Part shown: piece after piece, positions 45,301 through 48,300 of the stretch
Position numbering within the stretch: the first letter of the stretch is position 1
Layout: each line of letters begins with the position of its first letter
Assembly (NCBI GenBank): GCA_039621445.1
Contig: CP154954.1
Span: forward strand, 44,681,847-44,745,846
From: Euglena gracilis
Taxonomy: Eukaryota
Length of the DNA: 64,000 bases
Reading direction: 5' to 3'
Position numbers and translations under genes: made by a program
The notes under the pieces: generated by a model
Seen by the model: only the letters and a program-made list of their open reading frames with translations
Databases searched by the model: none
What the model was told of the DNA's origin: nothing

Positions 45301-48300
45301 CTCACCCACCCACCCACCCACCCACCCACACACACACACACACACACACAACCACAAACACACACACACACACACAACCACAAACACACACACACACACA
45401 CACACACACACAACACACACACACACACACACAACCACAAACACACACACAACACACACACATATACAGTAGGGGACATAAATAGTGGGACGCTCCGTCG
45501 GACATAAATAGTGGGACACCTAAAATTTTTTGGGGGACAGACATTTTTGTGAGCTGCGAAGTTGTTGAGGACCCAGATATAACCAAGGTGTTTCAAGTTG
45601 CCGCACGTATAACGGTTGCCCTGCACCACCCAACGGATGGCGAAGGGCTGTGGGGGTGCAAATTAATAGCGCATGGGGCCTCCATGAGCCTCGAGCAGGC
45701 GGCTGGGCATCAATGCATACAAGACACGAATTTCCGTCGGCGTGATTTCAGAAAACGCGCGCTGCGGGGCTGCTCAGGGGTCATTCTGGTTCGCAAACAC
45801 GCAGCCGTCGAGCTTGCGGAGGGCAACGGGCCACAGATGCCCAACTGGGTTGAGGTCGGGGCTCATCGGTGGCCAGAAACAGACCTCATTTTCTCCCATG
45901 GTGGCAGGTCAACGGAAATCAACGTGCCAGGGTATTCGTTTTATGGATTGAATTGAGTTGTGGCGCATATTCTTGCAAGCACCCAAACACACACGCGTGC
46001 ACGCATTTCTCTGGATGCCGTTTCAAAGATTTCCATCTTTCACAAATCTGACATACCTGGGCTTATTGAAGCGCAGGGCGCTTGCCAGGATTCCTTGGTA
46101 CCCCTTGGCAATCATCCTGTCCTGGCAAGCGCCCTGCGCTTCATTGTCAGATTTGTGAAAGATGAAAAGATGGGGTCGGTAAAAAATTGTATGGCCCCGA
46201 CCTCAACCCAGTTGGGCATCTGTGGCCCGTTGCCCTCCGCAAGCTCGACGGCTGCGTGTTTGCGAACCAGAATGACCCCCGAGCAGCCCCGCAGCGTGCG
46301 TTTTCTGAAATCACGCCGACGGAAATTCGTGTCTTGTATGCATTGATGCCCAGCCGCCTTGCTGCTGTGCTCGAGGCTCATGGAGGCCCCATGCGCTATT
46401 AATTTGCACCCCCACAGCCCTTCGCCATCCGTTGGGTGGTGCAGGGCAACCGTTATACGTGCGGCAACTTGAAACACCTTGGTTATATCTGGGTCCTCAA
46501 CAACTTCGCAGCTCACAAAAATGTCTGTCCCCAAAAAAATTTAGGTGTCCCACTATTTATGTCCGACGGAGCGTCCCACTATTTATGTCCCCTACTGTAC
46601 AGTAGAACCAGCTGTGTACACGCAACTGGCCATTTTGGGGAACGAGGTGGGTCCTCCCCCAAACAATGATACCCCACGGTTGGGTTCAAATCCTCCAAGG
46701 CAGGGCGGCGGGGCCCTGGCCGGGGCAGTGGGACAAGGCGCTGGAGGCGTACCGGCGGGCGCTGCAGCTGCACGCCGCGGCGGGCGGGGCGGCGCTGGAG
46801 GGGCGGGAGGGGGCCCTCTACCACCGCATGGCGAGCCTCTTCCAGAAGCAGGGCCACCGCCGCCGGGCCCTCGAGCTCTACGGTCGCTCCCGTACCCTGA
46901 AGGAGACCGCCGTGGGGCCCGCCGAGGCCGTCGGGGGACCTCCAAGGGACGGTGCCATCCTCACACCCCCACGGAATTGCGTGTCTGTCTGCGTGTGGGT
47001 TTGTTGGTGTGGCAGTTTTGGCGGTTTGAGTTTTGAGAGTGTGGCAGTTTTGGCAGTTTTGGCGGTTTCCCTTGTGCCCTTTCAAAATGGGTGGTGTCAC
47101 GTGAAGTTGTTTGCCATGAGGCTGGGCTGCAGTCGGCAGTCCAACCGACAGCCACCCACTCCCGTGTTCTGGCCTCCGTTTCGGGGTTCCCCATCACAGG
47201 TCTCCACCCAAGGCTTTACGGTTCAAGCATCCAGATTTGATCCAACTATCCCCACAATAAGCTTGGGGGAGGGGAATGCCCTCATTTGGGCAGCAGCCCC
47301 CCAATGGTTTGAAGGTCGTCGGCGAAATCACAGGTCGCGCATTTTTTTCCGACGGGTTGACAAAACGCATCCGCTTTTATCACTTGATCCTTGTGTTTCA
47401 TCGGAAGCCCCCCCCCCCAGGCCTCCCGCCAACGCCCCGGTCGTCGGGGCCATCGCGTACTCGATGGGGCAGCTGTACCACGCGGAGCGGCAGTTCCCGG
47501 AGGCGCTGGCCGCGTTCCACCAGGTGCTGACCGTGAAGGACATCCCGCCGGGCCCCGTCTGCCCACGGCAACCGCTGGCATAGACCGGCTCTGTCCAGGT
47601 CTGGCCCTCACCGATCTCCCTCTCTCCCTGAAGGCCCATCCTGTTGGGGTTGCCGGGTCGGCCGGGGAGCAGCCCAGGGTTCGATAGAAGGAGGGCGTAC
47701 ACGGTTTAGGTGGGGGGGTCCCCCCAACCCCCCCTCCTGGCCCGCAGGGGGGGTCCGGACCCCCCCCCGTCTTTATATCAAACCCTGGAGCAGCCTGCGG
47801 TGCTGTGGCCCCACATGCGGATGGCAGCGGTGTACAGCGCGCTGGGCGACCACGCAGCGCAGAGACCAGTTCGTCCAAAACCCAACCTTCGCCATGCAAC
47901 AGAGTGGGCAACAATTGCAGCGGACTGAAATTTTTTAAAGTTACCAAATTTTATCATAATCATATTTTTACATCTTTGGAGGTTGTTCATGTTCGGGACT
48001 GGCCGCTGGGGGCTGATGCGATTGAGATCAGGCTTCTTTTTAAGTCACCAGACCCCCCTCCCCCCGGGGGAAGGGGGCGGGGGGGTGGGTCCGGGCCGGC
48101 CCCCCGGGGGGGGGGGGGGGGTGTCCCGCACCGGAGGCGCTGGGTATACCTTTTCGGCGCGAAGCGCCGAAATTTTTTGATTAATTAATAATTAACAGGC
48201 CCGATTTTGGGGGGGGGGTCCCCGCCCCCCCCCCGCGCCACCCTGGGTGGGTGGGGGGGACCCCCCCCCGAGGGTCTTAAAAGAAGCCTGAGTGAGATGT

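Follow-up and report, generated by a model that had tools for sequence, protein, structure and literature searches.

In a 64,000-nt stretch of the Euglena gracilis genome (assembly GCA_039621445.1, contig CP154954.1, forward-strand positions 44,681,847 to 44,745,846; hereafter the window, in whose own numbering all coordinates are given), we found that a 262-bp MITE (miniature inverted-repeat transposable element), here called element 2, is verified by RNA as acting as a scarless nonconventional intron. The best explanation is that the region belongs to a nuclear gene that encodes a TPR-repeat protein and whose introns are of the euglenid nonconventional type, and to this explanation as a whole, including the mechanism set out below, we assign a probability of about 0.85. 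The locus provides a concrete case that can be checked, namely a transposon copy missing from mRNA at precisely the length of the element plus 8 nt, and a second MITE 240 bp upstream of it (element 1) provides the neutral alternative, that of a passenger within an intron.

Splice junctions were obtained from sequence data mapped on positions 43000-55200, which comprised two RNA raw-read runs from different studies (X21 and X24), a contig set presumed to be RNA (X16) and a DNA contig set (X12), the RNA runs being tied to the window by their species label only. Statements on joints hold among the joints listed, 15 of 371. Six of these were supported by X21, X24 and X16 and had no counterpart in X12, and a single X16 contig (2265 letters, depth 244.5) carried all six:

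45238->46722: 3 reads in X21, 1 in X24, X16 contig; 3 shiftable letters
46918->47429: 10 reads in X21, 3 in X24, X16 contig
47560->47813: 22 reads in X21, 2 in X24, X16 contig; no shiftable letters, none in X12
47857->48293: 28 reads in X21, 3 in X24, X16 contig; none in X12
48361->49448: 15 reads in X21, 3 in X24, X16 contig
49594->49915: 22 reads in X21, 2 in X24, X16 contig

The registers of the exons given below follow, where indicated, the splice code established for euglenid nonconventional introns by knock-in experiments, in which the 5' spacer is always 3 nt long, the 3' spacer measures 5-6 nt and the exon opens with a purine (Nomura et al. 2025, PMC12501133).

45112-45240, + strand: TPR exon; X16 piece 45112-45238, register by the code, frame open, upstream limit not fixed
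46724-46920, + strand: TPR exon; X16 contig piece
47431-47560, + strand: TPR exon; X16 piece 47429-47560, frame open
47813-47856, + strand: TPR exon of 44 nt (45 nt in the aligner's register); the shorter side of both adjoining joints has 45 letters
48015-48025, + strand: micro-exon of 11 nt; X16 contig letters, register by the code, frame open
48296-48361, + strand: TPR exon; RNA joints and open frame
49448-49594, + strand: TPR exon; X16 piece, TPR_12 match with E 7.2e-07 and 29.8 bits against a cutoff of 30.1
49915-49987, + strand: TPR exon with predicted 3' end; 73 X16 letters on the shorter side of the joint, consistent with an exon end at 49987

Once spliced, the exons have an open frame of 268 codons; stops number 6 and 2 in the two other frames. 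A Pfam scan of 13 of the 197 open reading frames (ORFs) of at least 130 aa in the window returned TPR families only and no transposase family. TPR_1, TPR_7 and TPR_2 were above cutoff on ORF 46606-47580, and TPR_12 came near its cutoff on exon-bearing ORFs, including a match under the curated cutoff (E 7.8e-05) on exon 45112-45240. Rfam gave no match at gathering score across the window.

The anatomy of element 2 and of the intron that it forms is as follows:

48029-48290, no strand: element 2, 262-bp MITE with ends CAGGCTTCTTTTTAAG...CTTAAAAGAAGCCTG, core of intron 5
48021-48028, no strand: upstream copy of its target duplication, ATTGAGAT; first 5 nt exon, last 3 nt intron
48291-48298, no strand: downstream copy of its target duplication, AGTGAGAT; first 5 nt intron, last 3 nt exon
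48026-48295, + strand: nonconventional intron 5, 270 nt, GAT-CAG...CTG-AGTGA|G; element 2 plus 8 nt, missing from mRNA

Comparing the first 14 nt of element 2 with its last 14 in reverse complement gives agreement over the first 12, and the two copies of the duplication agree at 7 of 8 positions. Joint 47857->48293 holds seven extra letters in the X16 contig, and since these match 48016-48022, the mRNA passes through the micro-exon and then skips element 2 plus 8 nt (270 = 262 + 8). Six letters common to both sides give seven equivalent registers for intron 5 as far as the RNA is concerned; none of the seven combines a GT or GC start with an AG end, and 48025|48296 is the only one that fits the code in the form N3-CDG...CH'G-N5-6|purine. 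In the predicted minimum-free-energy fold, positions 3-15 of the intron pair with its 3' end (z -4.62, with none of 200 shuffles as stable). Euglenid nonconventional introns are known to leave as circular RNA, later than the conventional ones; the joints listed included no circular one. An earlier note, made from the DNA letters, had described two inverted-repeat elements with flanking duplications of 8/8 and 7/8, and had pointed out that cutting 3 nt before CAG and 5 nt after CTG takes away each element plus 8 nt (121 and 270 nt); the sequence is as it described. For element 2 the mRNA bears it out further, as the predicted junction 48025|48296 agrees with the reads of both runs and with the X16 contig, the peptide reading IEMYRK is the one encoded by the mRNA, and the mismatch of the duplication falls in the part assigned to the intron, the mRNA carrying the T of the upstream copy.

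The MITEs with CAG...CTG inverted ends in this genome are non-autonomous DNA transposons that duplicate 8 bp of their target when they insert. We propose that element 2 landed in an exon 11 nt past the end of an older intron. Its inverted repeat would form the CAG/CTG helix that the nonconventional splicing system measures, and the cuts would fall outside this helix, 3 nt away on the 5' side and 5 nt away on the 3' side. Because 3 + 5 equals the 8 duplicated bp, such a cut would remove the element and one copy of the duplication and restore the frame as it was before the insertion, without a scar, as long as a purine stands at base 6 of the duplication. Either orientation should do, since CAG and CTG would be outermost in both. 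The micro-exon, which separates two nonconventional introns (4 and 5), was apparently created by this insertion downstream of the older intron, its 11 nt being the distance from intron 4 at which element 2 would have inserted. Element 1, in turn, would have landed in the existing intron 47561-47812 and would leave with it. The order of these events is what we infer from the present arrangement.

Element 1 is located as follows:

47675-47787, no strand: element 1, 113-bp MITE with CAG...CTG inverted ends, inside intron 3
47667-47674, no strand: upstream copy of its target duplication, GAGCAGCC, intronic
47788-47795, no strand: downstream copy of its target duplication, GAGCAGCC, intronic, identical at 8/8

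Its termini CAGGGTTCGATAGA / TATATCAAACCCTG form an imperfect inverted repeat with arms of 22 nt that are 82% complementary, and its ends, read from the sequence, satisfy the code (GCC-CAG...CTG-GAGCA|G), with 47672-47792 corresponding to 121 nt (113 + 8). The mRNA joins 47560 straight to 47813, and element 1 and both of its flanks are removed within a 252-nt intron. The X16 pieces ending at 47560 and starting at 49448 lie 121 letters apart, and these are fully accounted for (45 + 7 + 69 = 121), which leaves no room for a micro-exon between 47560 and 47813. Element 1 is not an intron of its own in the mature mRNA; it rides in intron 47561-47812. The claim of the earlier note that both elements interrupt TPR coding sequence thus holds for element 2, on the evidence of the RNA reads, but not for element 1, whose flanks those reads place in an intron. 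The junction 47671|47793 that had been predicted for it is absent among the joints listed, the codons of the corresponding reading EQPAV fall within the removed 252 nt, and a MITE lying inside a larger intron is the outcome that the note itself had named as contrary to its proposal. The fit of its ends to the code makes nested removal from the pre-mRNA a possibility for element 1.

To place both elements in context, the whole window was scanned for CAG...CTG pairs 40-2000 bp apart that are bounded by a 12-nt inverted repeat with at most 2 mismatches, after a low-complexity filter. Among 121 candidates, eight displayed a flank identity of at least 7/8, and only one did so when the right flank was shifted by 8 nt; in 30 first-order Markov simulations the scan found 0.03 on average and never more than 1, against the eight real cases. 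The duplication length was sharp, as k = 8 yielded six perfect duplications and eight with at most one mismatch, and k = 6 and k = 9-12 yielded none. When all 64 terminal triplets were tried, CAG accounted for 8 of the 20 hits, the remainder being mostly tandem or simple sequence. The eight elements are short (113-649 bp) and non-coding, carry eight different 8-mers as their flanking duplications, and several have in common the end motif CAGGnnnnnnCTTAAG, which matched 13 times in place of the 2.85 expected (none of 100 shuffles reached 13). These elements are real MITEs, and as a class they have CAG ends and target duplications of 8 bp. Besides elements 1 and 2, this class comprises six members of 277-649 bp, with a duplication of 8/8 in five and of 7/8 in one:

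5294-5942, no strand: CAG...CTG element with its own 8-bp duplication
9361-9813, no strand: CAG...CTG element with its own 8-bp duplication
10716-11223, no strand: CAG...CTG element with its own 8-bp duplication
13970-14393, no strand: CAG...CTG element with its own 8-bp duplication
34343-34619, no strand: 277-bp MITE akin to element 2, GACTGGAC duplicated 8/8
50057-50453, no strand: 397-bp MITE, GTGCATTG duplicated 8/8, probably intronic

Element 2 has two relatives within the window, at 34343-34619 and at 44584-44689. The latter is a partial copy of the same family, with a right end identical to the inverted repeat of element 2 that is followed by GGCTGGAC; it has no matching CAG left end, GGCTGGAG is found at about 44563-44570, and the element may be truncated. 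Word depth in the DNA set was hundreds-fold higher over the elements than over the exons, a figure confounded by poly-G/C that is not a copy number. No convincing coding frame across the site resulted when any of the remaining six MITEs was excised together with 8 nt. The sixth base of the duplication is a purine in 6 of the 8 cases, the MITE at 50057-50453 having a T where the code requires a purine, and the fifth is a pyrimidine in just one of the 8.

The remaining introns of the TPR gene are given here with their triplets and spacers:

45241-46723, + strand: intron 1, 1483 nt, GCC-CAG...CTG-GCCGG|G; joint 45238->46722
46921-47430, + strand: intron 2, 510 nt, GCC-GAG...CTC-CCGCC|A; joint 46918->47429
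47561-47812, + strand: intron 3, 252 nt, GCC-CAC...GTG-GCCCC|A, containing element 1; joint 47560->47813
47857-48014, + strand: intron 4, 158 nt, GCG-CAG...CTG-GGGGCT|G, with a 6-nt 3' spacer; joint 47857->48293 plus its 7 letters
48362-49447, + strand: intron 6, 1086 nt, GCC-CAG...CTG-TGGGG|G; joint 48361->49448
49595-49914, + strand: intron 7, 320 nt, GGC-CGC...GCG-GGGTT|G; joint 49594->49915
49988-51053, + strand: predicted intron 8, GCT-CAG...CTG-CGTGG|G, containing the MITE at 50057-50453; a code-fitting and frame-preserving prediction, with no RNA joint among those listed

All seven RNA-supported introns have a register with 3 nt, complementary triplets and 5 nt (6 in one case) before a purine, and a purine is also the first base of each of the seven introns as well as of each of the seven downstream exons. 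The triplets are CAG/CTG in four, and GAG/CTC, CAC/GTG and CGC/GCG in the others; the strict CDG/CH'G form is found in 4/7. Folding predicts that the ends of intron 3 pair with each other (z -2.98). Four of the seven have GCC as their 5' spacer, and so does element 1. In the register of the model, flank identities for introns 1-7 were 6, 3, 2, 3, 7, 5 and 4 of 8; mismatched intron pairs averaged 2.98 and never exceeded 5. With the MITE intron included, the total of 30/56 was matched or exceeded in 92 of 5040 permutations. Two of the introns look like older insertions of the MITE kind, to judge from their termini and flanks: intron 1, with CAGGG-type inverted ends agreeing at 13/16 and a flank identity of 6/8, and intron 6, with values of 10/16 and 5/8. 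It has been described that nonconventional introns tend to have a pyrimidine where the upstream exon stops and at the intron end, and a purine at the intron start and at the start of the next exon (PMC4770533). These rules would pair in the register of the duplication, the pyrimidines as duplicated base 5 and the purines as duplicated base 6.

A broader proposition can be built on this, and we take its parts jointly: that the fixed 3+5 cut would be the exact complement of the 8-bp duplication of CAG-ended (hAT-like) MITEs; that an insertion into an exon would be scarless from the first transcript on, in either orientation, if the sixth duplicated base is a purine; that most nonconventional introns would be decayed MITE insertions; and that the purines at the intron start and at the start of the next exon would be one duplicated base seen twice. 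We put this forward tentatively, its chances falling a little short of even. The earlier note had likewise seen in the intron consensus the footprint of a transposon that duplicates 8 bp, and this idea fits the window, but it does so with one spliced copy, and the other six introns do not lend it significance. For these six non-MITE introns the flank identity totals 23/48, and of 720 permutations 92 come out as high. The tendency points the expected way but is not significant on six introns, and the window alone shows no general excess.

This null result is one of several that weigh against the explanation preferred here. Of the eight MITEs, one is shown to act as an intron, by the RNA mapped on 43000-55200. 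The RNA by itself cannot fix the junction of intron 5 within the six shared letters, so that the 3+5 split would follow from the published code, and the letters of the micro-exon come from the X16 contig only. Intron 5 has an A at the end of the upstream exon, contrary to the published tendency for a pyrimidine. Moreover, with 15 of 371 joints listed, a minor isoform or an intermediate of nested splicing may use 47671|47793. Finally, RNA and DNA are linked by species label, and the presence of element 2 at this site in the strains that yielded the RNA is an assumption.

The last point leads to the rival that we take most seriously as regards intron 5, namely that the RNA-seq strains lack element 2 and that their mRNA simply reads through the original target, with no splicing involved. 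An empty site would produce the same mRNA as a scarless splice, and fixed differences between the DNA set X12 and the window at several positions show that strains or alleles are not all alike. Nevertheless, three RNA data sets from three studies are concordant, and the gene of the assembled strain is otherwise intact over 268 open codons, which is expected only if element 2 is removed there too. In addition, the mismatch in the duplication (1/8) and an indel in the inverted repeat suggest an insertion older than the divergence within the species, and on balance we consider an empty site very improbable. Even less probable is the reading in which the two MITEs both lie in coding sequence and are spliced separately, as introns in their own right with junctions 47671|47793 and 48025|48296. 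The ends of both elements fit the code, and the ORF stays open when each is removed with 8 nt, but 24 reads and one contig join 47560 to 47813, the contig has no letters for an exon in between, the EQPAV stretch falls within the removed intron, and 47671|47793 is absent among the joints listed; for the main transcript this reading is refuted.

Similarly slight are the chances that the 8-nt repeats at the junctions stem from the repair of a double-strand break at intron gain rather than from transposition. There is a precedent, since such repair has been proposed for a nonconventional intron of recent gain in E. agilis that is flanked by a direct repeat of eight nucleotides (PMC4770533). The elements of the window, however, have inverted terminal repeats of 12-16 nt, a terminal motif common to several copies, related copies elsewhere in the window that each have a different 8-bp flank, and a duplication length fixed at 8, and inverted repeats, common motif, related copies and fixed length together are the signature of cut-and-paste transposition.

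Which superfamily mobilised these MITEs is a separate matter that concerns the label "hAT-like" only. The label was guessed from the CAG ends and the duplication of 8 bp, and membership in hAT is putative. Five of the eight elements start with CAGNG, which we take to be the hAT type, and we count this on the side of another superfamily; the CAGGG-type ends presumably match those of Ac/Ds-like hAT elements. Two traits described for hAT elements, inverted repeats of 10-25 bp and 8-bp duplications (PMC3942097), are both found here, as the inverted repeats measure roughly 12-18 nt and the duplications peak at k = 8. Merlin families of E. gracilis also make 8-bp duplications (PMC8101967), and the 8-9-bp duplication of Merlin agrees with the window, but Merlin inverted repeats start with GG and all eight elements start with CA, so that, judged by its ends, Merlin does not fit the elements studied here. 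A superfamily other than hAT, or one not described so far, would also be in line with the Pfam scan, in which the 13 ORFs out of 197 matched no transposase family; we consider this unlikely, though far from negligible, given that both hAT traits are displayed.

The idea that nonconventional introns derive from MITEs is not new. Studies of these introns (Milanowski et al. 2014, PMC3935182; Milanowski et al. 2016, PMC4770533; Nomura et al. 2025, PMC12501133) have dealt with it in different ways: a MITE origin was proposed in 2014 from inverted repeats and junction repeats (PMC3935182), in a year when euglenids were said to lack any identified transposable element; a 2024 review named the CAG/CTG at +4..6 and -8..-6 "TIR" and the junction repeats "TSD" (PMC11282704); and a MITE origin was still held plausible in 2025 (PMC12621601). 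Nonconventional introns make up 71.8% of all introns in Euglena agilis, according to a study which also notes that direct repeats leave 84.4% of introns "slidable", and whose authors excluded these and called the origin unclear (PMC12501133). The earlier note had left it to a literature check whether the arithmetic was already in print. The MITE origin, the CAG/CTG inverted-repeat ends and the duplication-like repeats are, whereas the explicit equation of 3+5 with the 8-bp hAT duplication was not found among the papers listed in the literature searches, and supplementary junction tables (PMC3935182, PMC4770533, PMC12501133 SI) may hold data on 8-nt repeats. In the same searches we found no named MITE copy or family shown by RNA to be spliced in a euglenid. 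The conceptual step was therefore largely anticipated, and what is new here is an RNA-verified example, a class of CAG-ended MITEs that duplicate 8 bp, and a sharpened arithmetic that can be tested. The value lies in the evidence and in the sharper prediction rather than in a new principle, and the hypothesis of origin becomes testable genome-wide and by the published knock-in assay.

Compared with known systems, the introns of the TPR gene resemble euglenid nonconventional introns in lacking GT-AG, in pairing CAG at +4..+6 with CTG at -8..-6 and in their slidable junctions, the geometry being present in 7/7. Published nonconventional introns have been described one by one, without element families, and intron 5 differs from them in being a recognisable transposon copy with long inverted ends, a near-intact 8-bp duplication and relatives in the window. 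A published parallel is gapC intron 4 of Euglena agilis ACOI 323, likewise nonconventional, whose eight-nucleotide direct repeat at the junctions was taken to indicate recent gain; unlike here, the repeat was ascribed to double-strand-break repair, and the passages on it name no element family (PMC4770533). Introners (of Micromonas, dinoflagellates, Fritillaria and others) are likewise short inverted-repeat transposons with a target duplication, which serves to make their removal from RNA exact, but they are spliceosomal: the element provides one splice site, and a duplication of 3-5 nt provides the second (PMC11282704). In intron 5, by contrast, it would be the spacing of 3+5 from the inverted-repeat helix that sets the cuts, with a duplication of 8 bp and a nonconventional machinery; and introners form families of introns, whereas one MITE copy is known as an intron here.

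MITEs of the hAT superfamily and Ds-type elements also have target duplications of 8 bp and short inverted repeats, like the putatively hAT-like elements of the window. The CAGGG-type ends are presumably common to Ds-type elements and to those of the window. Giroux and colleagues are said to have described in 1994 that Ds-type elements are spliced from transcripts. In maize, the removal of Ds uses cryptic spliceosomal sites and is usually imprecise.

Several further features of the window were recorded. Intron 1 holds a large inverted duplication (45465-45862 / 46194-46599) with arms of about 400 nt in three segments and a complementarity of 99%. A Tc1-like label for the ORFs of this duplication was dropped, as they gave no Pfam match even at E up to 1. 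The summed word depth of the DNA set X12 rose to about 1e5 to 5e5 at 43000-43813 and 49919-50732, compared with about 30-70 over the exons, and although these values are not copy numbers, they indicate very high-copy repeats in both places. Over positions 43000-55200, X12 and the window displayed fixed single-base differences at many sites in introns and between genes, among them 45256, 46968, 46980, 48989 and 49236. Arrays of GT/CA-type microsatellites, of up to about 760 bp, were found within 653-3377, 8861-9230, 11381-11736, 14983-15234, 55302-55523 and 57919-58587, and the start of the window presented a strong GC/AT skew.

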